Assembly (NCBI GenBank): GCA_902619825.1
Contig: CACNFT010000003.1
Span: forward strand, 10,473-74,472
Direction: 5' to 3'
DNA length: 64,000 nt
Source of the DNA: an uncultured Candidatus Actinomarina sp.
GTDB taxonomy: Bacteria; Actinomycetota; Acidimicrobiia; Actinomarinales; Actinomarinaceae
This document shows positions 30,465-54,152 of the stretch, piece by piece (the stretch's first letter is position 1; each line of letters begins with the position of its first letter). The notes under the pieces were generated by a model. It was not told the origin of the DNA, did not search any database, and was given only the letters and a program-made list of their open reading frames with translations. Both the position numbers and the translations under genes were made by a program.

Positions 30465-31412
30465 TTATTCTTCTTTATCTTCAGATTCAGTCGAATCTTT
30501 GTTTTCATCCTTGAACAATTCTGAAATTGCTCCAATACTGCCCAAAGTTGCAGATAGATCTGCTGGCAAAAATATTTTTGTAGCATTTCCATCAGCAACT
30601 TTTTCAAGAGATTCTAGATATTTTATTGCTATCAAATCGTTTGAAGGATCACCTTCATGAATTGCATTGAAAACTTTTAATATAGCCTCAGCTTCACCTT
30701 CTGCTGTAACTACTCTTTCATACTTTTCAGCATCAGCAACTTGTTTTAATGCTTCAGCTTCACCTTGAGCACTTAAAATTTGTGACTCTCTTTCACCTTC
30801 TGCTGTCAAAATTGCAGCTCTTTTTTCACCTTCAGCTTCGGTAACAGCAGCTCTTCTATCCCTTTCAGCTTTCATAACTTTGTTCATTGCATCTTGAACA
30901 TCTTGAGGTGGATCAATTCTTTGAATTTCAACACGAACAACTCTAGTACCCCACTTATCTGTTGCTTCGTCAAGGATCAATTTTAAAGATGTATTAATAG
31001 TCTCTCTTGAAGTTAAAGCAGCATCTAATTCAAGATCACCAACGACATTTCTTAGGTTGGTTTGTGCTAATTTTGTTGCTGCAGTGATAAAATCTCCGAC
31101 GTTATATACAAGTTTTTTAGGATCAGTTGGTTCATAATAAATGACTGCATCAACAGTAATCGTTACATTGTCTTTTGTAATAACTTCTTGTGGTGGAACA
31201 TCGATAACTTGTTCCCTCATGTCTACAATGATTAATTTTTCAATCCCAGGAATTACAATGTTGAGTCCTGCGGTTGCCTCTCGATTATACTTACCAAATC
31301 TTTCAACTAATCCTTTCTCGAATGGTCTTAGAATTCTAAATATTCTGAATGCAATAAAGATTACAAGACCAAATAATATTACGCTTCTTACAATTGATAA
31401 TATAAATTCCAT
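30465..31412 (-). CDS. SPFH/band 7 (stomatin-prohibitin-like) membrane protein
   Basis: N-terminal TM followed by an SPFH domain and a coiled-coil Ala/Glu-rich region. Confidence 0.8.
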   Translation of the reverse strand: MEFILSIVRSVILFGLVIFIAFRIFRILRPFEKGLVERFGKYNREATAGLNIVIPGIEKLIIVDMREQVIDVPPQEVITKDNVTITVDAVIYYEPTDPKKLVYNVGDFITAATKLAQTNLRNVVGDLELDAALTSRETINTSLKLILDEATDKWGTRVVRVEIQRIDPPQDVQDAMNKVMKAERDRRAAVTEAEGEKRAAILTAEGERESQILSAQGEAEALKQVADAEKYERVVTAEGEAEAILKVFNAIHEGDPSNDLIAIKYLESLEKVADGNATKIFLPADLSATLGSIGAISELFKDENKDSTESEDKEE

Positions 31413-31453: not shown

Positions 31454-31822
31454 TTAACTATTTGTTTCTTCTGTGTCTTTTTCTTCTTGTTCGTATCTAT
31501 TTAGAGCAAGCATAAACATAATAAAAAGTATTAAAGATCCGACAAAATAAGTAATTGGAATAATTCTTATTTCTAGAGCGTTTAGACCATCTATTGATGA
31601 TGGGGCTGGGCCCCTAGGAGCATAAAGTATAAACAGAAATGAATTAATAACTAGCCAACCAAAAGTTGCAGCTCCAACAACAAGGAAGCCAAGTCTTCTA
31701 CCTAAGTTTGTTGCGTTCAAAATAAAAGTTGATCCAAAAAATGAGAGAACAAAAAAAACAAAAAGAAAAATTCCTGTAAATGTCAAATTAGATGACAACA
31801 GGGTTCTCATTATTTCACGCAT
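31454..31822 (-). CDS. small membrane protein (3 TM), possible accessory subunit of the respiratory complex
   Basis: 122 aa. Its start overlaps the stop of the cytochrome c gene by 8 nt, suggesting translational coupling. Confidence 0.4.
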   Translation of the reverse strand: MREIMRTLLSSNLTFTGIFLFVFFVLSFFGSTFILNATNLGRRLGFLVVGAATFGWLVINSFLFILYAPRGPAPSSIDGLNALEIRIIPITYFVGSLILFIMFMLALNRYEQEEKDTEETNS

Positions 31823-33239
31823 CAGGTGTCATTCCTCTCAAATAATCTATAACCAATTCTATATCTGACTGTGGAAGTACCGCACCAAATCCTGGCATTT
31901 TTCCACCACCAACTCCATTAACTCCATAACCTTTACCATTGACAGAACCATTAATAATAAAATCGATAAAGTCATCTCTCTCTTTAAACTGAATGTTTAC
32001 TCGTCCACCTTTTAATGCAGGGCCTAAACCTCCAGAGCCAATTGTTTTTGTATATGCAGCTCCTGCAGAGTATCCAGCAGTGTGACATCTCGCACAATAT
32101 GCATTAAATATTCCTACTGCTCTTGTTGCTTTGTCATAATCTCCATCAAAAGTTGAATCTGCAATATCTTGAAAATCAATAAGCCATAATTTTTGTTCGT
32201 AGGCATTTTCAAGAAATGCTAAACCTTTTTCTGCTTCCTGCATAAATTTGTCATAACCATCAGTAAGTATTCCTAGATTAATAACACTCGTTTCGAGATC
32301 AGAAAGATATCCTCTAACAACTGATGCATCTTTTCTTCCTGGAGTTGATTCTTCTTCATCTGGGTTTAGATTTAAAATTGCAGTACCCAAAATATCTGCA
32401 ATACTTTCACTGTAAACTGATATATCTGTTTCTACTGAATCAAAAAGTCCATCTTCATCGGTATCGATTCCGTTCTGCCTTGCTAGGATGGCAGAAACAA
32501 TTTCAACAGCTTCAATTGCAACAGGTAATCTTTCCGGAGCCAACATTATGTTATTGATAAGTTCATTTTGTTTGTTTATCTCACTTTCAACTTGTAAATC
32601 GGAGTTTTCAATGCGTAACAAAGATGAATTTATATTTTGTTCAATTTGTTGAAGTTCCTCACTTTGTGGAATTTGAAAATAATGCAAATACTCTATCAAA
32701 TCGTCAAGCTGTCCATCATTCATTGGACCTCCACCTTTAAGACCCCAAGCTGGCATAGGTGAGTTTGCTCTACCGTATATAAGCCAATACCTAACTTCAT
32801 CATCATCATATCTATAAAATACATTGTTTATTGCAGGGGCTACCCATGTAACACTTACACCACTTCTTTTTTCAACATATGAAGCTGCTCCTCCACTACC
32901 ATCTACTCCATGGCAGTTTCCGCAGCCAAACTCTTCATAAAGATGATGTCCTCTTTCAACTGAAACATCGTCAAACTCTTCTACAAAACTCTCTTGTCGA
33001 GCTGGTTCACCGAGATAATAAAGTGGGATCATAATTGTAAGTAAAGAAGCTAGGACAACTGCTATTGATAATGTTTTATCAAGATGAGTGGTCTCTAATT
33101 CATCATCTGGAAGATATTTTTGTAAATTTCTTGGTACTTTTTTGATTTTTCCTGCACCACGAAAACCAACTGCGGAAAAATAAGCTATTGCCCCAACAAC
33201 AGCTAAGGCAATTAATGTTATGAAAAATGAGCTGTTCAC
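31815..33239 (-). CDS. membrane-anchored diheme cytochrome c (QcrC-like)
   Basis: Two CxxCH sites (CGNCHG and CARCHT). N-terminal TM. Lies directly downstream of the Rieske gene. Confidence 0.75.
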   Translation of the reverse strand: MNSSFFITLIALAVVGAIAYFSAVGFRGAGKIKKVPRNLQKYLPDDELETTHLDKTLSIAVVLASLLTIMIPLYYLGEPARQESFVEEFDDVSVERGHHLYEEFGCGNCHGVDGSGGAASYVEKRSGVSVTWVAPAINNVFYRYDDDEVRYWLIYGRANSPMPAWGLKGGGPMNDGQLDDLIEYLHYFQIPQSEELQQIEQNINSSLLRIENSDLQVESEINKQNELINNIMLAPERLPVAIEAVEIVSAILARQNGIDTDEDGLFDSVETDISVYSESIADILGTAILNLNPDEEESTPGRKDASVVRGYLSDLETSVINLGILTDGYDKFMQEAEKGLAFLENAYEQKLWLIDFQDIADSTFDGDYDKATRAVGIFNAYCARCHTAGYSAGAAYTKTIGSGGLGPALKGGRVNIQFKERDDFIDFIINGSVNGKGYGVNGVGGGKMPGFGAVLPQSDIELVIDYLRGMTPDA

Positions 33240-33241
33240 TT

Positions 33242-34120
33242 TTATTCCTCAGTCTCTGCAATCGTAATACACGAAAGTCCTTGTGGATATTTCACAGACA
33301 TACCACCAGCACGTGGTGATTCGATGACTGATCCAGTGTCAATAATTAATTTTCCACCCGAAACACTTACAATAAATCTATCTAAGTTTCTTGGAGCGGG
33401 GCCTGCATAATACTCCCCAACCATGTTGTATTTCGAACCATGACATGGACATTCAAATCCTTGAGAAGTGTTACACCATGGAACACGACAGCCTAAATGA
33501 ACACATCTTTGATAAACAGCAACTAAACCTTCTGCAATGGTTCCACTATCAGAAAACTGAGAGTTACCATTATCATCAAATGGTAAGACGTAAGCTCTTG
33601 CTTCTGGAATGAATGCAGGAATAACTGAACCATCTGATTGAAAAATTTGGTTTTTAAGATCATCAACTCTTCCAGCATCTATTTTAGATCCAAAACCTCC
33701 GGAAACTTTTGGATAAAAGAATCCAAGCCAAGAAATTAATTGGATACCAGCAAATGCTCCAAACGTTATTCCAAGAGCTTTACCCAAAAATTGTCTGCGA
33801 GTCATTCCAGCTTCTTCCTCTGAAATTTCTTCATAAATAATTTCTTCTTTTATAGCAATGGATCCATCGGTTTGAATTTCTTCTTCCTCTTGTTCATCAT
33901 CTTCGGATACGTTTTCTTCTTCAAAATCTGGTTCATCTGGAGCTAAAAAATTTGTTTGAGATTTATCAACTTTTAAAGCTTTTTTGTCTAAATTCTTTTT
34001 CCAATTTAATCTTTTTGTTACAGCCTTTGGGGTTCTTCCAGTTACTACAGCTGCAATTCCAATTACACCAAATACACCAATAAATGCGATTGCAATAAAT
34101 GAAAGCTCAACAAGAGTCAT
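33242..34120 (-). CDS. Rieske [2Fe-2S] iron-sulfur subunit with N-terminal TM, acidic linker and internal twin-arginine motif
   Basis: Rieske boxes CVHLGC and CPCHGS. TRRQFLGKALG Tat motif around residue 107, preceded by an extra TM helix and an E/D-rich segment. Confidence 0.85.
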   Translation of the reverse strand: MTLVELSFIAIAFIGVFGVIGIAAVVTGRTPKAVTKRLNWKKNLDKKALKVDKSQTNFLAPDEPDFEEENVSEDDEQEEEEIQTDGSIAIKEEIIYEEISEEEAGMTRRQFLGKALGITFGAFAGIQLISWLGFFYPKVSGGFGSKIDAGRVDDLKNQIFQSDGSVIPAFIPEARAYVLPFDDNGNSQFSDSGTIAEGLVAVYQRCVHLGCRVPWCNTSQGFECPCHGSKYNMVGEYYAGPAPRNLDRFIVSVSGGKLIIDTGSVIESPRAGGMSVKYPQGLSCITIAETEE

Positions 34121-35031
34121 TCGAAATGGACCCAGTCAAGTAAGTCATCGAACCATACACCATCAATCCATGGATAAGTCCAGTTCCAACCTGGGCCTCT
34201 AAATAAAATACCTATAAGACTTAATGTTCCAGCACCTGCAAGAAAAAAGGTCCACAACATTATTGCATACTTTCTTTTTGAAGGCTTATTTTCTTTATTT
34301 CGATCAATATATGGAATTGCCATAAATGCTGCAACACCAATTAGAAGAGGTATCATCACACCTGCGATCTGTGGATCCCAATAGGAGAGTAATTCTTGTA
34401 ATCCTAAAAAGTACCATGGTGCTTTTGCAGGGTTTGGTGTAATATTTGGATTTGCTTCTTCTAATAAAGGAGCTTGCAAAATTGCACTTATAAAAATCAA
34501 AAACGCTGTCATTGCCATTAATGAAATAAACTCTGGCAACATTAGATGAGGCCATGTGTTTACTTTATCAACTGGTTCAGAAGTTGGTTTTTGTATTGGC
34601 TTTGCTTTGACTACTGTAAGCAACCTTTGTGTTACTTTTGTCTCAGGAGCAAAATCTACTTCGGTAGGTACCTGTCCATTTGATTTTTCAGGTGCAGGAG
34701 CTGGTGCTTCTTTGACTGCAGACGCTGCTGCTGGTGTTTCTTTGACCTCAGCTGCTGGTGGCGCTGTTTCTTTGACTTCAGCTGCTGGTGGTGGTGTTTC
34801 TTTGACTTCAACTGCTGGTGGCGCTGTTTCTTTGACCTCAGCTGCTGGTGGCGGTGTTTCTTTGACTTCTACTTCAATTGGAGTAACTTCAATTACATCT
34901 GGTTCTTTCTCAATTTTGGTAGGTTGTACTTCACCTCTCATTTCAGCCAGAGCTTGTTCAACTGAAATACCTAAGGCCTTGGCTCTTGCTTCTGCAGTTT
35001 TTAATAATAAATGTTCTGGAATATCAACCAT
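34117..35031 (-). CDS. cytochrome b C-terminal half (b6f subunit IV-like) with N-terminal helical module and a Pro/Ala-rich repeat linker
   Basis: C-terminal NPNITPNPAKAPWYFLGLQELL matches the conserved P-E-W-Y region of cytochrome b / SUIV. The N-terminal ~40 aa (LLLKTAEARAKALGISVEQALAEM) are hydrophilic. Contains 5x AEVKETPPPA repeats. Confidence 0.75.
   Translation of the reverse strand: MVDIPEHLLLKTAEARAKALGISVEQALAEMRGEVQPTKIEKEPDVIEVTPIEVEVKETPPPAAEVKETAPPAVEVKETPPPAAEVKETAPPAAEVKETPAAASAVKEAPAPAPEKSNGQVPTEVDFAPETKVTQRLLTVVKAKPIQKPTSEPVDKVNTWPHLMLPEFISLMAMTAFLIFISAILQAPLLEEANPNITPNPAKAPWYFLGLQELLSYWDPQIAGVMIPLLIGVAAFMAIPYIDRNKENKPSKRKYAIMLWTFFLAGAGTLSLIGILFRGPGWNWTYPWIDGVWFDDLLDWVHFE
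34711..34870 (-). repeat. about 5 tandem copies of a 30-bp repeat encoding AEVKETPPPA inside the SUIV-like gene
   Basis: The unit TTTGAC(C/T)TCAGCTGCTGGTGG(C/T)G(C/G)TGTTTC recurs at 30-bp periodicity. Confidence 0.85.
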
Positions 35032-35037
35032 ACATAT

Positions 35038-35817
35038 CTATAGAGGACCTGAGATCCCTCCATCCTTTCTTACTCGCCAGAAATGAATTGCCATAAAAAT
35101 TACAATGATGAAAGGAAAAAATAGAACATGTAAAACATAAAATCTAAGAAGTGTTGCTTCAGTAGCTTCTAGTCCTGCAAATAAGGCAAACTTTACTTGA
35201 GCACCAAAAACAGGAGTGTATCCTGCCATATTTCCACCAACTGTCACAGCCCAAATTGCTAACTGATCCCATGGAAGTAAATAGCCAGTGAATGAAAGTA
35301 AGAGTGTAAGAATTAATAATATAACTCCAATCACCCAGTTAAACTCTCTAGGTGCTTTGTACGCCCCATGATAAAAAACTCGAGACATGTGAAGAAATAC
35401 TACTAACACCATGATATGGGCCGCCCATCTGTGCATATTTCTAACAAGTGATCCAAATGCAATACTTGTCTGTAAAGATTGGATATCAACATACGCCATT
35501 TCTGTAGGCCTAAAGTAAAACATTAACCAAATACCAGTTATGGTCAAAACAATAAAAGTAAAGAAACTTAATCCTCCAAGACAAAGGGTGTATGATAACC
35601 TCACGCCATGTCTTTTTACTTTTACTGGGTGAAGGTGATATAAAACATTGTTCATAACAACATAAGATCTGTTTCTTGGGCTATCGGAATAGCCTTTCCT
35701 AAATGGAGAACCAGGTCTAAAAATACTTCCCCAAAGCGTGCTTTCTTTAAGCGAATCACCAAGACCAGAACTTATGTCTTTTAATCTATCTTTAAATTTA
35801 ATTTTTTCGTTTTTCAT
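35038..35817 (-). CDS. cytochrome b N-terminal half (b6-like), heme-binding
   Basis: 4 TM with His pairs as in cytochrome b (VRNMHRWAAHIMVLVVFLHM ... HFWRV). Confidence 0.8.
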   Translation of the reverse strand: MKNEKIKFKDRLKDISSGLGDSLKESTLWGSIFRPGSPFRKGYSDSPRNRSYVVMNNVLYHLHPVKVKRHGVRLSYTLCLGGLSFFTFIVLTITGIWLMFYFRPTEMAYVDIQSLQTSIAFGSLVRNMHRWAAHIMVLVVFLHMSRVFYHGAYKAPREFNWVIGVILLILTLLLSFTGYLLPWDQLAIWAVTVGGNMAGYTPVFGAQVKFALFAGLEATEATLLRFYVLHVLFFPFIIVIFMAIHFWRVRKDGGISGPL

Positions 35818-36272
35818 TAAAGTCTTCCATATATATAGCCATGACGGTCACTTCTCTCTCCAGAGTCTTCATCCCATGGAGATTCATAAACACCATTCTT
35901 TATTGCTGCATCTGCTAAAGATCCAGCAAACTTACCAAGCGATATAACCCCTGTTGGGCACCTATCAACACATAATGCACATCTTGTACAAGCTTCTTCA
36001 TCTACAACAAAGAATCCCGTTTCATTATCTTCCATGTTAGGAGCTTCCACATTTATAGAGTCTTCTATAGCGTCTGTTGATAAGTAATGTATGCACTTCC
36101 ATGGACAGATATCTACACATCCTTCACATAAAATGCACTCTGCCTCATCAATATGTAAAAACTGTTTTGGCCTTACTCTTGAAGAAACCTTTTCCGCGTC
36201 TACCATCGCTAAATTGTATTTTTTTTCAAATTCAGGCATTTCAATAAGTACTTCTGATTTAGCCATCAGCAC
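35817..36272 (-). CDS. 2[4Fe-4S] dicluster ferredoxin-domain protein encoded within the Rieske/cytochrome b operon
   Basis: CILCEGCVDICP and CTRCALCVDRCP motifs. Its stop overlaps the cytochrome b6-like start codon. Confidence 0.75.
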   Translation of the reverse strand: MLMAKSEVLIEMPEFEKKYNLAMVDAEKVSSRVRPKQFLHIDEAECILCEGCVDICPWKCIHYLSTDAIEDSINVEAPNMEDNETGFFVVDEEACTRCALCVDRCPTGVISLGKFAGSLADAAIKNGVYESPWDEDSGERSDRHGYIYGRL

Positions 36273-36852
36273 CTACCTTCACGACTTGTTTTCCATAATC
36301 AGAAACTCTAGTTTTTCCTCTTTCTTTTGCTTCGTTGATATCTTGAATTAGATACCCTACTACAAAAGCTGTCACTAATGCTCCACCTGATATACCAAGT
36401 TGAATAATGTCTTTCAGAGCTCCGAGGCTCATTCCTATTTCGTTACCTAAAAATAAAATTGGAGGAAAGTTGATAAACTCTCTTTGATTTGTCCATTCAA
36501 GAGGTCCTTGAGAAAGGTTTAACCACTCTGAAGGCAATACACCAAATATAAGTGCAAATTGTATCCAACTAAGAAATGCGAGATATGTTGCTCTGGCCCA
36601 AGTTAATTCAGAATCTTGCCATGCAAGCATTGCCATTCCGATCAATAGAAATTGACCTGCACCAAAAGCAATGAGTTGCCCGATGGTTTGCATTAGCCAT
36701 CCCCTAGGCATCCAATTAAAATAATCGATTACTTCGCCTTCTGGAAATCCAGCGAAATGTGCAATAATTACTCCAATTGTTATGCCACCTACTCCAGCAA
36801 AAATTAAAGCAACTCCGATTTTGTATCGGTTAATAAATATAAAATTTAACAA
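36259..36852 (-). CDS. hypothetical integral membrane protein, first gene of the Rieske/cytochrome b operon
   Basis: 197 aa with ~5 TM. Overlaps the ferredoxin gene by 14 nt. Confidence 0.45.
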   Translation of the reverse strand: MLNFIFINRYKIGVALIFAGVGGITIGVIIAHFAGFPEGEVIDYFNWMPRGWLMQTIGQLIAFGAGQFLLIGMAMLAWQDSELTWARATYLAFLSWIQFALIFGVLPSEWLNLSQGPLEWTNQREFINFPPILFLGNEIGMSLGALKDIIQLGISGGALVTAFVVGYLIQDINEAKERGKTRVSDYGKQVVKVGADG

Positions 36853-37021: not shown

Positions 37022-38425
37022 ATGAGAATAAAAATTTTTCCAAAAAATGAACAAGCGTTTTCAAAATTTTTTATTGTTTTAACTCCACTTTTTTTGCTTC
37101 TTTTAGGAACTATTGCATTAACGAAAGAGGCTTATTTCATTTTTGCAGCCATACTCCCTCAAAATAGTTTTCTCAATAGTGGATATTTAGAAAAACTAAA
37201 TAACCATATAACTTACAATTTGATGCTTTCATTTTTAATTGTGTTTTTGACTGTTTACTTATTACCAAAAACACTTGGAAGAAAATTAATAATATTCCCA
37301 ATTTTTTTTCTAACTTCATTAGGAGTTATTGGATTGGAGTCACTTGATCTATTATTAGGAATATTATTTCCTAATAGTTTTTTGTTCTTTGGAAATACTA
37401 GTTATACATTAATTTTTAAAATTTTAATATTTTTTGCCTTTGTTGGACTCATTATTTTAAATATATTGGCCAAAAAAGAAGCTTCTCTGTTTGTTAGTAG
37501 TCAGTATCTTTTTGGTGCAAGTATTTTTTATTTGATATCACTTCTAATTTATAGGGCTGATTTTGTTGTATTTAGCGACAATTTTTTCATTAATTCAATG
37601 TATGTTTCAACACATATATATGTCGGATATTCGTTCGTATTTCTATCATTACTTCATTTCATGATTACAAAAGGTATAAATGCTACGTTATACAGTAAAA
37701 CATTAGGATCTATTGGATTTTGGGGATTCTTGTTTCTTATTCCTTGGTCAAATTTTAAATTTTACTTTGGTTCTGTATTGCCAAATTGGATAGAAAATAT
37801 ATCTCTTTATTTGTCTATGAGTTTGTCTCTCCCACTGCTTGCTATAGCTGTAAATTTCTTCAGAACGGTTTCAACGAGAATTGAGGAAAATAAAGTAATT
37901 TATAGTCTTATAAGTTTCTCGTTTGGGATATTTGTTATAACAAATATCTTTCAAATTGTGTCCTCGCTCTCAAATATCATTCCCATATTGAGTCTTACAA
38001 ATTTTGAGATAGCAATTAGATATGGATATGTTTTCAGTGCAATATTAATTACAATCTCGTTTGTTTATTATCTGATTCCTAAAATCTTTGGAAGAGAAGT
38101 CAAATTTTCAAGGCTTGAATCTTTAACTAGTTTTCTATTAAAACTTGTGGTGTCTTTAACATTATTTTCTAATGCTTTAATCGGAATTATTTCTGGTTAC
38201 TCATGGAATGCTGGTGCCAATGCAGGAAACCCAACAATCTATGGTGAAGGGTTCAGTTTATTGTGGTCACTAATCAGTACTCCTTTAACGCTAAATATGT
38301 TTTTATCTTTGACATTACTTCTGCCATTTCTGTTGTTTTTCATTTCAGTCGTCAAGGCTGTAGTAAATGGAGAAATTACAGAAGCAGAAACAATTGAACT
38401 TACTGAAGAGGAGCTTCCAGTATGA
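37022..38425 (+). CDS. polytopic membrane protein (about 12 TM) of unknown function, first gene of a cytochrome c operon
   Basis: 467 aa. Overlaps the next gene by 4 nt. One segment (VYYLIPKIFGREVKFSRL) vaguely recalls a cbb3 CcoN helix, but the His metal ligands are absent. Confidence 0.45.
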   Translation: MRIKIFPKNEQAFSKFFIVLTPLFLLLLGTIALTKEAYFIFAAILPQNSFLNSGYLEKLNNHITYNLMLSFLIVFLTVYLLPKTLGRKLIIFPIFFLTSLGVIGLESLDLLLGILFPNSFLFFGNTSYTLIFKILIFFAFVGLIILNILAKKEASLFVSSQYLFGASIFYLISLLIYRADFVVFSDNFFINSMYVSTHIYVGYSFVFLSLLHFMITKGINATLYSKTLGSIGFWGFLFLIPWSNFKFYFGSVLPNWIENISLYLSMSLSLPLLAIAVNFFRTVSTRIEENKVIYSLISFSFGIFVITNIFQIVSSLSNIIPILSLTNFEIAIRYGYVFSAILITISFVYYLIPKIFGREVKFSRLESLTSFLLKLVVSLTLFSNALIGIISGYSWNAGANAGNPTIYGEGFSLLWSLISTPLTLNMFLSLTLLLPFLLFFISVVKAVVNGEITEAETIELTEEELPV

Positions 38426-38620
38426 GTGAACTCTTAAGTAAAGTTGCTGAATTATTAAACGCGCCAGAATCATTGGTGCAACGATCTGCTGAAGCAAGAG
38501 CAGAGGCCTCTGGAAGAACTGTAGATGAAGTTTTACAATCCTGGGCTGGAGGAGAGTCTGTGGCTGCTGCAGAAAAACCTGTCGAAGAAACACCTCCTGT
38601 GGAAGAAGTGGCACAACCTA
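38422..38620 (+). repeat. 199-bp perfect direct repeat, copy 1 (5' end of the first cytochrome c gene)
   Basis: Identical to 39236-39434. The antisense shadow ORFs 38345-38614 and 39210-39428 encode the same peptide, which confirms the identity. Confidence 0.9.
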
Positions 38621-39243
38621 TAGAGAAACCTGTAGAAACATCAGAAGAGGAAAAAGATGAAGAACAAGAATCAACTGAAGAATCATCAATTGTTTTTGAT
38701 GAAAATGTTTCTGAATTGATTACGGAGGTATTAATAGAAGAAGAAAATGTTGCAGTAAAAAAAGAAAGTTCGATTGGATTTATTGCCGGTGTAATTGGAG
38801 TAGTTGTCTTTACATACCTATTTGCTTTCTCAATACCAAAACAACAAAGCGAGGAATTAGTCAGACAATCTTTAAATAATTCAATTCAAGTTAGTGATGA
38901 TATATTAAAAGGAGCAATTGTGTATAACCAATTAAATTGTCAATCATGTCATACACAAAATGTAAGAATACTTATTCCTGATTCACAAAATGGAAAAATA
39001 CTAAAAAATCAACTTGCAGATAAAAATATTATAGAAAATACTGGGTTACTTAGATTAGCTACTGACCTATCAACATTTGGAAATAGGGAGCCAATAAACC
39101 AAAAAGCATGGCTACAAAGATATTTAACTCAACCTTCCTCTGTAAGAGAAGAAATACCCCATCCATCAGTAAATTTCCTTACCGATCAAGATTTAGATTA
39201 TTTGATAACTTATTTATTATCTTTAGGAAGTACAAATGAGTGA
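38422..39243 (+). CDS. membrane-anchored mono-heme cytochrome c with N-terminal cytoplasmic helical module
   Basis: CQSCHT heme site, one TM (IGFIAGVIGVVVFTYLFAF), and an N-terminal 66 aa identical to the next gene. Confidence 0.7.
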   Translation: MSELLSKVAELLNAPESLVQRSAEARAEASGRTVDEVLQSWAGGESVAAAEKPVEETPPVEEVAQPIEKPVETSEEEKDEEQESTEESSIVFDENVSELITEVLIEEENVAVKKESSIGFIAGVIGVVVFTYLFAFSIPKQQSEELVRQSLNNSIQVSDDILKGAIVYNQLNCQSCHTQNVRILIPDSQNGKILKNQLADKNIIENTGLLRLATDLSTFGNREPINQKAWLQRYLTQPSSVREEIPHPSVNFLTDQDLDYLITYLLSLGSTNE

Positions 39244-39434
39244 ACTCTTAAGTAAAGTTGCTGAATTATTAAACGCGCCAGAATCATTGGTGCAACGATC
39301 TGCTGAAGCAAGAGCAGAGGCCTCTGGAAGAACTGTAGATGAAGTTTTACAATCCTGGGCTGGAGGAGAGTCTGTGGCTGCTGCAGAAAAACCTGTCGAA
39401 GAAACACCTCCTGTGGAAGAAGTGGCACAACCAG
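39236..39434 (+). repeat. 199-bp perfect direct repeat, copy 2 (5' end of the second cytochrome c gene)
   Basis: See copy 1. Confidence 0.9.
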
Positions 39435-40186
39435 TTGATGAAAAAAAAGATGTAGAGGAACCCAAAGAAGAGTCTGTAGAAATAATCAAGAATGAGAGCG
39501 AAAAATTACCAACTGTATCTTCTCAAACAAATATAAAAAAAGTTATACAAAAAGTATCTTTTGCAAATAAGACATTGGATATAAAGGTAAATGCGGAAAC
39601 ATCTTTGCCGAGATGGCTAAATTTTAGTTTTGTATTTATTCCTCTCTTTATTGTTATTGGGATAATCAATACATCATCGACACAAGAATGTGGGGAGAAT
39701 GGAATTTTAGATGTTGATCGAAAAACTCAATTAACTGTGAATTGTGATGGATCGCCATTTGAAGGTAAAGGTGTTGGATCTGCAAGCTCAATAAACTATA
39801 TCGCACTTGGACAACAAGTTTATTCTGGCGCTGCTGCTTGTGCTGGTTGTCATGGAGTAAATGGTGGCGGCGGGGTAGGTCCTGCATTTACAGGTGGAGA
39901 GCTTTATACAACTTTTCCAACTTGTAGTGATCATGCATTGTGGATTGAACTTGGTTCTGCAGGTTGGCAGGCTGAAATTGGACCCGCATATGGAGCAGAG
40001 AATAAAGTATCAATCGGCGGAATGCCCGGATTTGTAGGAAAACTTACTGAAGATGAGATTTACGCAGTTGTGGTTTTTGAAAGAGTAGTATTTGGTGGTG
40101 GAAATACTGACGAAGTACTCGAAGACTGTGGACTTCTTGAAACAGATGAGGAAATCACTACAGAAGCTATTGAGCCAACTGGTTAA
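39236..40186 (+). CDS. membrane-anchored mono-heme cytochrome c, paralog of the upstream gene
   Basis: CAGCHG heme site, one TM, and the same N-terminal 66 aa module as the previous gene. Confidence 0.7.
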   Translation: MSELLSKVAELLNAPESLVQRSAEARAEASGRTVDEVLQSWAGGESVAAAEKPVEETPPVEEVAQPVDEKKDVEEPKEESVEIIKNESEKLPTVSSQTNIKKVIQKVSFANKTLDIKVNAETSLPRWLNFSFVFIPLFIVIGIINTSSTQECGENGILDVDRKTQLTVNCDGSPFEGKGVGSASSINYIALGQQVYSGAAACAGCHGVNGGGGVGPAFTGGELYTTFPTCSDHALWIELGSAGWQAEIGPAYGAENKVSIGGMPGFVGKLTEDEIYAVVVFERVVFGGGNTDEVLEDCGLLETDEEITTEAIEPTG

Positions 40187-54078: not shown

Positions 54079-54152
54079 GGGCGCTTAGCTCAGTCCGGCA
54101 GAGCGCTTCCCTTACAAGGAAGAAGTCACAGGTTCAAATCCTGTAGCGCCCA
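54079..54152 (+). tRNA. tRNA-Val (anticodon TAC)
   Basis: Acceptor GGGCGCT/AGCGCCC, D-loop AGCTCAGTCCGGCAGAGC, anticodon loop CTTACAA and T-loop GGTTCAAATCC. No encoded CCA. Confidence 0.85.

Follow-up and report, generated by a model that had tools for sequence, protein, structure and literature searches.

The DNA analyzed here, which we call the window, is a 64,000-nucleotide stretch from an uncultured Candidatus Actinomarina sp., a monoderm (contig CACNFT010000003.1, positions 10,473 to 74,472; G+C content, 32%). It contains two adjacent, divergently transcribed respiratory operons. Three of their products, a subunit-IV-like protein and two cytochromes c, begin with a small helical module that is the subject of this analysis. 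Read on the minus strand from 36852 to 31454, a b6c-type operon encodes a 4-transmembrane (TM) protein, a 2x[4Fe-4S] ferredoxin-like protein, cytochrome b6, subunit IV, a Rieske protein, a dihaem cytochrome c, and a 3-TM open reading frame (ORF). The plus-strand operon encodes a CcoN-like protein (37022-38425), a FixO-like cytochrome c (38422-39243), and a FixP-like cytochrome c (39236-40186). The first two of these genes overlap by 4 nucleotides (nt; 38422-38425) and the last two by 8 nt (39236-39243); such ATGA-type and longer overlaps suggest that the three genes may be translationally coupled. We refer to the version of the module on subunit IV as S-type, to that on the cytochromes c as C-type, and to the successive helices as H0, H1, and H2. 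The features are as follows (aa, amino acids; HMM, hidden Markov model):

31454..36852, minus strand: b6c-type operon, including the S-type carrier (ORF list, family matches, TM prediction)
34117-35031, minus strand: subunit-IV-like protein (cytochrome b type)
34933..35031, minus strand: S-type module, aa 1-33 of the subunit-IV-like protein; helix, G-x-S turn, helix, with no H0
34636..34932, minus strand: subunit-IV linker, aa 34-132, rich in E, P, A, and V, net charge -11, (EVKETPAPAA)n (composition)
34117..34635, minus strand: membrane core of the subunit-IV-like protein, with a cytochrome b C-terminal/PetD domain, 3 TM helices, and the motif APWY (Pfam)
37022..38425, plus strand: CcoN-like 12-TM protein heading the operon of the C-type carriers (profile match to CcoN, alignment)
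38422..38553, plus strand: C-type module, aa 1-44 of the FixO-like cytochrome c; helices H0, H1, and H2 (AlphaFold2, HMM)
38554..38772, plus strand: acidic linker of the FixO-like protein, aa 45-117, 32% Glu, net charge -20 (composition)
38773..39243, plus strand: TM anchor (aa 118-136) and FixO-like monohaem cytochrome c domain (CQSCH at aa 173) (Pfam, TM prediction)
39236..39367, plus strand: C-type module, aa 1-44 of the FixP-like cytochrome c, identical to the copy at 38422-38553
39368..39616, plus strand: cytoplasmic linker of the FixP-like protein, aa 45-127
39617..40186, plus strand: TM anchor (aa 128-146) and cbb3-type monohaem cytochrome c domain (CAGCH at aa 202) (Pfam, TM prediction)
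38422..38618, plus strand: perfect direct repeat of 197 nt, copy 1, spanning the module and the first 21 linker codons
39236..39432, plus strand: perfect direct repeat of 197 nt, copy 2, 814 nt from copy 1

The subunit-IV-like ORF (34117-35031, minus strand) starts MVDIPEHLLLKTAEARAKALGISVEQALAEMRG, with positions 34900-35031 encoding its first 44 aa, and ORFs 38422-39243 and 39236-40186 (plus strand) both start MSELLSKVAELLNAPESLVQRSAEARAEASGRTVDEVLQSWAGG. A sequence-only reading of this DNA had quoted these N-terminal peptides, which agree exactly with the ORF translations, and had proposed that they represent one shared module. Our comparisons showed that the segments, 33-44 aa long, are homologous. 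Using BLASTP with compositional adjustment, the subunit IV and cytochrome c modules shared 13 of 33 residues (E=2e-7), and none of 20000 composition-preserving shuffles of the cytochrome c segment reached the local score of 66 (shuffle mean, 24; maximum, 50). A profile-profile comparison with hhalign aligned the two types over 32 ungapped columns with a probability of 98.6% (E=5.5e-16). When the 64 kb window was scanned in six frames with a module HMM, exactly three sites were recovered at 72-73 bits each, with the next match below 3 bits. All three proteins therefore carry the module, as proposed. However, because the first 197 nt of the two cytochrome c genes are 100% identical, their modules are not independent evidence; they constitute one observation, leaving two independent versions and not three.

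The alternative that had to be weighed at this point is that the likeness arose by chance or composition, through Ala/Glu-rich helices with generic capping, or that it reflects part of a signal anchor. The module is Ala-rich, and its G-[IV]-S-V-E-[EQ] part resembles the idealised helix-loop-helix junctions of designed repeat proteins. Against this, the shuffles and the hhalign comparison show that the similarity is not compositional, 161 cluster representatives match the module at E<=1e-10 (see below), its position-specific invariants hold in genomes of 32% to 65% GC, and it lies well upstream of the TM helix (73-133 residues). We regard this explanation as refuted.

We next consider where the module lies relative to the membrane. 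In both cytochromes c, the module and the CxxCH haem site are separated by the only TM helix of the protein. Since the haem site must be outside the cell, the N termini of both proteins are placed in the cytoplasm. In the subunit-IV-like protein, the APWY motif lies between TM1 and TM2, so TM1 must cross the membrane in the inside-to-outside direction, which leaves the 166 N-terminal residues in the cytoplasm. The topology of all three proteins is thus in accord with the cytoplasmic location suggested by the sequence-only reading. It also distinguishes the module from a signal-anchor region, as 70-130 residues, including a disordered linker, separate it from the TM helix.

The linkers themselves are unusual in composition. 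In the window they span 73-99 residues, are rich in Glu, Pro, Ala, and Val, and have net charges of -6 to -20. Across loci, the subunit IV linker varies from 39 to 199 residues, and linker composition is 0.20-0.25 A, 0.19-0.24 P, and 0.10-0.17 E. The coding sequence of the subunit-IV linker in the window includes a 30-nt tandem repeat at 34703-34869 (minus strand; 5.6 copies) that specifies (EVKETPAPAA)n. Near-identical metagenomic relatives of subunit IV (274-309 aa) vary in repeat copy number in 10-aa steps (274, 284, 294, and 304 aa), which identifies the repeat, as judged from these sequences, as a copy-number polymorphism in natural populations.

The three carriers in the window were compared with known respiratory families. 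The subunit-IV-like protein matches PF00032 at 30.1 bits (cut-off, 20.7), has TM helices at aa 167-185, 222-240, and 259-277, and contains APWY, the quinol-oxidation (Qo) motif, at aa 204. It therefore has the PF00032 domain, the three TM helices, and the P-x-W-Y motif by which a b6f subunit IV or cytochrome b C-terminal domain is recognized. As subunit IV carries APWY, we assign the reductase to the APWY clade of split cytochromes b, which has been described with Ilumatobacter among its listed members (Kao and Hunte, PMC4122944). The FixO-like cytochrome c scores 22.9 bits against FixO, below the Pfam cut-off of 29.6, and 23.1 bits against Cytochrom_C, above the cut-off of 21.3. The FixP-like cytochrome c matches PF13442 (Cytochrome_CBB3) at 28.3 bits (cut-off, 27). 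All cytochromes c examined in these clusters are membrane-anchored.

AlphaFold2 modeled the cytochrome c module as three helices (residues 3-11, 16-30, and 34-41) with a predicted local distance difference test score (pLDDT) of ~90 in the core. A carrier from a caa3 oxidase operon, described below, was given the same three helices (pLDDT ~80), followed by a linker with pLDDT <30. In these models, H1 and H2 are joined by a 3-residue G-x-[S/T/P] turn. The subunit-IV module starts four residues before a conserved Pro and has no first helix. From these models, the module is predicted to be an independently folding cytoplasmic mini-domain with a core of helix, G-x-[S/T/P] turn, and helix, mostly with an additional H0. 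The signature of 392 distinct units is P-E-x-L-[LV]-x-R-S-A-E-A-[RK]-A-x-A-x-G-x-x-V-[DE]-x-V-L-x-x-[MW]-x-G, in which nine positions (P12, L15, R18, S19, A20, A22, A24, G28, and L35) are at least 85% conserved. A20/A24 and A22 point to different sides of H1, so that the constraint on this helix extends to more than one face.

We did not find this fold in existing collections. Foldseek searches with the module model yielded no match at E<1, and a sequence-profile search of the PDB returned only designed repeat proteins, with no significant match for the module. Apart from sub-threshold ribbon-helix-helix (RHH) and helix-turn-helix (HTH) matches and one summed HTH score, Pfam and NCBIfam contain no model for it. 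The E3_binding domain (PF02817) was not reported in profile scans of the window proteins, the multi-copy carriers, or 19 diverse units.

The sequence-only reading had likened the module to HeH and Rho_N domains. Like HeH, SAP, LEM, and Rho_N domains, it is a small two-helix unit that is often N-terminal and often followed by a flexible linker. This assignment did not survive closer inspection: none of these four families matched the 19 diverse units at E<=10, the window proteins at E<=0.1, or seven multi-copy carriers at E<=1, and the module has a tight 3-residue turn in place of an extended loop, as well as an acidic H2. We also considered RHH proteins of the CopG/Arc/MetJ type, since the pattern phi-P-E-x-L-L ... 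A-x-x-x-G-x-S-x-x-E-phi-L recalls their helix A, turn, and helix B. RHH proteins are obligate dimers, a property that would suit a docking role. Membership was rejected. The best matches were to CopG_antitoxin (E=0.032; 15.4 bits, cut-off 28), FitA-like_RHH (E=0.056), and VAPB_antitox (E=0.13). Moreover, the monomer AlphaFold2 models lack the N-terminal beta-strand, with either H0 or just 4 residues preceding the conserved Pro, and the Pro-Gly spacing is one residue longer than in RHH_1 by a hand count against Arc and RHH_1 sequences. Lastly, the H0-G-M-P-H1 part of some units resembles an Xre-type HTH. One relative (P0242) scored 39.5 bits against the Xre-like HTH PF20432 (cut-off, 25.8) through H0-turn-H1, a score summed over two units; the cut-off was reached by no window protein and by none of 19 single units. 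S-type units without H0 are without half of the putative HTH.

These comparisons bear on the suggestion that the module tethers its carriers to nucleic acid, the nucleoid, or the ribosome by means of an HeH-, SAP-, HTH-, or RHH-like fold. The P0242 score and the weak RHH matches could be taken in its favor, as could the net charge of H1 (+0.6 to +1.9). However, HeH, SAP, and Rho_N matches are lacking altogether and the window proteins have no HTH or RHH match, while the absence of H0 from N-terminal S-type units means that the HTH-like pair is not constant. Further, the net charge of the whole module (-0.4 to -1.4), the acidic H2 (-1.4 to -2.0), and the strongly acidic linkers argue against DNA or RNA binding. 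We therefore consider a nucleic-acid tether very improbable. An explanation at the RNA level was dropped, as an Rfam scan of the window found nothing at the module and it is the peptide that is conserved from 32% to 65% GC.

The distribution of the module was determined in two ways. When 1.84 billion cluster representatives were searched exhaustively with HMMER, 412 matched the module at E<=1e-3, and the best 150 of these were inspected. In a pattern scan of GTDB, with one genome per species, a 7-sequence S-type alignment, and tblastn confirmation, at least 414 module loci were confirmed, and the best 80 were inspected. Nearly all of these 80 are labelled Acidimicrobiia or Actinomycetota. The sequence-only reading had asked whether the module recurs on respiratory subunits of related genomes, and it does so widely in the Acidimicrobiia. 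The 80 loci contain 191 module-bearing ORFs, including 72 subunit IV, 48 FixP-like, 42 FixO-like, and 27 unclassified ORFs, most inspected examples of the last being divergent FixO-like, frameshifted, or truncated versions. Copy number ranges from 1 to 7 overall; many high-GC relatives have 2-7 tandem modules with Pro/Ala-rich spacers. In the inspected carriers, the module is always N-terminal to the membrane anchor or domain. The ten-gene, two-operon arrangement of the window is kept in 12 of 12 tabulated loci.

Additional carriers and neighboring genes were found both in the b6c-type operon and in a third gene cluster:

31454-31822, minus strand: 3-TM ORF, last gene of the b6c-type operon
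35817-36852, minus strand: 4-TM protein (no known family) and soluble 2x[4Fe-4S] ferredoxin-like protein, operon genes 1-2
L081:5348-6472, L082:8001-9134, and L083:8001-9134: caa3-operon carriers of the P0344 family, 371-377 aa

Homologues of the 3-TM ORF carry 3-7 modules elsewhere, with seven in P0241 and three in P0245. The gene for P0241 (L084:668-2524) comes immediately after one for a homologue of the 4-TM protein, an order that differs from that of the window. Two proteins, P0243 and P0290, represent a divergent subunit-IV-like group of carriers. In three Actinomarina-like contigs, a ~7-TM protein with an N-terminal C-type module (the P0344 family) is encoded by the last gene of a caa3 oxidase operon, in the order COX2-cytochrome c, COX1, COX3, COX4, CtaG, and ~7-TM carrier. 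This carrier had no Pfam or NCBIfam match, and AlphaFold2 did not model its TM domain reliably (pLDDT ~40). The possibility that it is a paralogue of the neighboring Caa3_CtaG was examined and rejected.

All carriers identified among those inspected belong to the quinol-to-oxygen branch of respiration, in three gene clusters. Of the roles offered by the sequence-only reading, supercomplex docking and nucleoid or ribosome tethering, this list of carriers favors the former, in the sense of docking within the respiratory chain. Database names give little hint of the relationship: the carriers are called "hypothetical protein" or "mono/diheme cytochrome c family protein." Word-indexed protein searches were similarly uninformative, since full-length subunit IV recovered only relatives at least 84% identical and the 44-aa module profile recovered only fragments of at most 77 aa.

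The two types of module differ in structure and in conservation. S-type units occur on subunit IV and on the 3-TM subunit. Their sequence is nearly invariant, with A-E-M-x-G at the end, and H0 is missing from all those that are N-terminal. The extra helix is present in C-type units, which terminate in W-A-G and are found on the cytochromes c and the caa3-operon protein as well as in the divergent subunit-IV group. When genomes are compared, the module is better conserved than the haem domain of the same protein, with identities of 0.62 vs 0.45 for FixO-like and 0.68 vs 0.48 for FixP-like proteins. For the S-type, the window module matches the high-GC consensus at 21 of 30 positions (70%, by hand count), compared to 64-72% for the TM core; the S-type conservation of 0.96 is inflated, as the 80 loci were picked by likeness to an S-type query. 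Identity between S-type and C-type modules is 0.39-0.41, within and between genomes alike.

The two cytochrome c modules are more similar to each other within a genome than either is to its orthologues. In 39 Acidimicrobiia loci, FixO-like and FixP-like modules of the same genome had a mean identity of 0.79 (up to 1.0), while orthologues between genomes had identities of 0.61-0.67. The two modules thus evolve in concert, a pattern that indicates recurrent gene conversion; the 197-nt repeat in the window is an extreme case.

The protein that heads the operon of the C-type carriers is also atypical. It is homologous to CcoN at E=1.3e-10 only. Aligned with H257, H258, H345, and H347 of 3mk7_A (P. 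stutzeri CcoN), of which we take the first two to be CuB ligands and the last two to be haem ligands, are K, F, a gap, and R. The entire protein has 3 His, and none of these His columns is conserved among the window protein and 25 Acidimicrobiia homologues. Only one His column, occupied by F in the window protein, is common to at least half of the 26 aligned sequences. We rejected its assignment as the catalytic subunit of a cbb3-type haem-copper oxidase, as the six His ligands are not present. From the alignment, the protein looks like a degenerate, cofactor-poor scaffold and not an oxidase. In one locus (L085:5015-6940), a FixO-like domain without a module is fused to the C terminus of the CcoN-like protein. 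Five modules are present on the FixP-like protein of that locus and one on subunit IV. These differences indicate that the module needs a free cytoplasmic N terminus and that the number per subunit is flexible.

An alternative explanation is that the module is a device for biogenesis or topology, either a fast-folding domain that fixes the N-in orientation or a handle for a targeting or assembly chaperone. That the module always precedes the first TM helix, and that it is absent where the FixO-like domain is fused behind the CcoN-like protein, are as expected for such a device. The flanks of the cytochrome c TM helices also lack a positive-inside bias, their tails being acidic (net -6 to -20). 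However, a plug has no need of up to 7 tandem copies, and R18, E21, R/K23, and K25 are conserved beyond the apparent requirements of folding. In addition, there are many N-in membrane proteins, yet the module was found on respiratory subunits only and no other ORF in the 64 kb window matches it. A role in biogenesis thus appears improbable.

Several other products of these operons have features of note. Cytochrome b6 (35038-35817, minus strand) contains C-L-G-G at aa 79-82 and ends in ...GGISGPL, as in PetB; its partner subunit IV has APWY, not PEWY. In b6f and Firmicute bc complexes, the Cys of this motif is the n-side ligand of haem ci. At its N terminus, the Rieske protein (33242-34120, minus strand) has an additional TM helix (aa 8-26). 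A basic stretch and then a strongly acidic loop (aa ~27-105) separate this helix from a Tat-like RRQFLG anchor; this hairpin anchor thus has its own disordered cytoplasmic segment, without a module. The 4-TM and ferredoxin-like genes are kept in the reductase operon in 12 of 12 tabulated loci, and the ferredoxin gene is missing in L085. An SPFH/Band-7 (stomatin-like) gene (30465-31412, minus strand) lies directly downstream of the reductase operon, and RimK and Zn-protease genes lie next to the cytochrome c operon; none of the three was a conserved neighbor in the related loci examined. The sole Rfam matches in the window are tRNA genes at 2614-2686 and 54079-54152 (plus strand). A viral-contig scan with cytochrome b6 yielded no match.

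What might a module with these properties do? Among the carriers, neither the carrier subunit nor the copy number is conserved, only display at the cytoplasmic face. The composition of the leash, the variable copy number, and the interchangeable carriers likewise suggest that it is display on this face that matters, not precise geometry. Three further considerations point to docking. The small residues A20/A24 and A22 constrain two faces of H1; an S-type hairpin of 30 residues would probably need a partner for stability; and the combination of a mini-domain with an Ala/Pro-rich linker matches, as an analogy only, the design of known docking modules. We infer that docking in the broad sense, whether it links respiratory components or recruits a soluble partner, is the probable function. 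Our preferred reading, that the module is a docking domain on a flexible tether linking respiratory complexes, we place at slightly less than even odds (roughly 0.45). According to this model, the module would serve as a docking handle on a flexible leash at the cytoplasmic face of membrane subunits. By binding copies on neighboring complexes, or one common cytoplasmic partner, it would hold the reductase, the oxidase, and the membrane-anchored cytochromes c close enough to reach one another.

In a more specific and tentative version, which we think doubtful as it stands, the modules on the reductase, the CcoN-like/cytochrome c complex, and the caa3-operon protein would bind one another. S-type hairpins would complete themselves against C-type three-helix units, and the flexible leashes would gather all of the quinol-to-oxygen branch in a single supercomplex or patch of membrane, in which the degenerate cbb3-like complex would be a scaffold for electron-shuttling cytochromes c. 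Self-association of the module is a conjecture.

Four points weigh against linkage of respiratory complexes by the module. First, the C-type has drifted (0.62-0.68), in contrast to the nearly invariant S-type. Second, there is no co-evolution signal for an S-C heteropair, since S-C identity within a genome equals that between genomes. Third, the concerted evolution of C-type modules can be explained by neutral gene conversion of adjacent paralogues, the identical tract extending 21 codons into the linker. Fourth, as inspection covered the top 150 of the 412 representatives and the top 80 of the 414 or more loci, carriers that are soluble or non-respiratory may occur among the others.

The near invariance of the S-type would suit a conserved partner that is not itself a module. 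One possibility, which we hold to be unlikely but worth serious attention, is that the modules recruit a single shared soluble cytoplasmic partner, such as the ferredoxin-like protein, a dehydrogenase, a kinase, or an assembly factor. In mechanism, such recruitment would be one form of the docking handle, but with a different partner and a different biology, namely electron input or n-side regulation. The gene for the ferredoxin-like protein, which has no TM helix, belongs to the operon both in the window and in the 12 tabulated loci, cytochrome b6 retains the CLGG Cys at what we take to be the haem ci site on the n-side, and arrays of 2-7 modules would fit avidity. In L085, however, modules are present on subunit IV and the FixP-like protein, yet the operon has no ferredoxin gene. 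Nor is there a clear reason for extracellular cytochromes c to share one cytoplasmic partner with a caa3-operon protein.

In agreement with the sequence-only reading, which knew of no description of this arrangement, we found no account of it in Pfam, NCBIfam, the PDB, or the literature searched; the literature search returned the APWY clade of split cytochrome b, including Ilumatobacter, with no mention of an N-terminal module. What is new here is an unannotated domain family that ties together three separately encoded respiratory clusters and is conserved as strongly as the redox domains or better. We know of no precedent for a linker-borne docking mini-domain on the cytoplasmic face of several respiratory complexes. 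The Acidimicrobiia, including the very abundant Actinomarina of the ocean surface, are almost uncultured, and their respiratory chain is known from gene lists alone. If the module is a docking handle, supercomplexes in these bacteria would be built from the cytoplasmic side by tethered domains, and if the modules bind one another, respirasomes would be assembled on a principle that is not known from other organisms. The 33-44-residue peptide also offers a direct experimental handle by which the complexes, with any partner, could be recovered from cells or from metagenomic expression libraries. The family merits a profile model, as these N termini are currently unannotated. The analysis also draws attention to a CcoN-like protein without metal ligands and to a ferredoxin-like subunit in a b6c-type operon.

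One comparison within the phylum is the obligate bcc-aa3 supercomplex of Mycobacterium and Corynebacterium, which face the same problem: a monoderm that has no freely diffusing periplasmic cytochrome c needs to hold its reductase, membrane-bound cytochromes c, and oxidase together. In the Actinomycetia, this supercomplex is held together by direct transmembrane and periplasmic contacts and by the dihaem QcrC. It is not known to involve a tethered cytoplasmic module, and the Actinomarina reductase differs from it in being a split b6/subunit-IV enzyme of the APWY clade. In chloroplasts, the n-side N terminus of the homologous subunit is used for docking and regulation: the stromal N terminus of PetD interacts with the Stt7/STN7 kinase. 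That region is a short tail that is not shared with other complexes, whereas the module is folded, repeated, and borne on a 100-residue leash.

Two systems of tethered docking domains resemble the module in design. Dockerins and cohesins are likewise small docking modules with Pro/Thr/Ala-rich linkers, variable copy number, and a function independent of the carrier; unlike the module, they are extracellular and calcium-dependent, and they are unrelated to it in fold and sequence. The peripheral-subunit-binding domain (PSBD; E3_binding, PF02817) of the E2 component of 2-oxoacid dehydrogenases is a helical docking mini-domain of ~35 residues that is flanked by flexible Ala/Pro-rich linkers and lies N-terminal to the assembly core. 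The module is similarly small, helical, and flanked by Ala/Pro linkers, and both start with a Pro-initiated basic helix ending in G-[VI]. The first helix of the module is longer, the GTGxxGR loop is absent, and there is no detectable sequence relation. Since PSBDs are carried by soluble E2 cores and the module by membrane respiratory subunits, the likeness is an analogy of design and not one of family membership.

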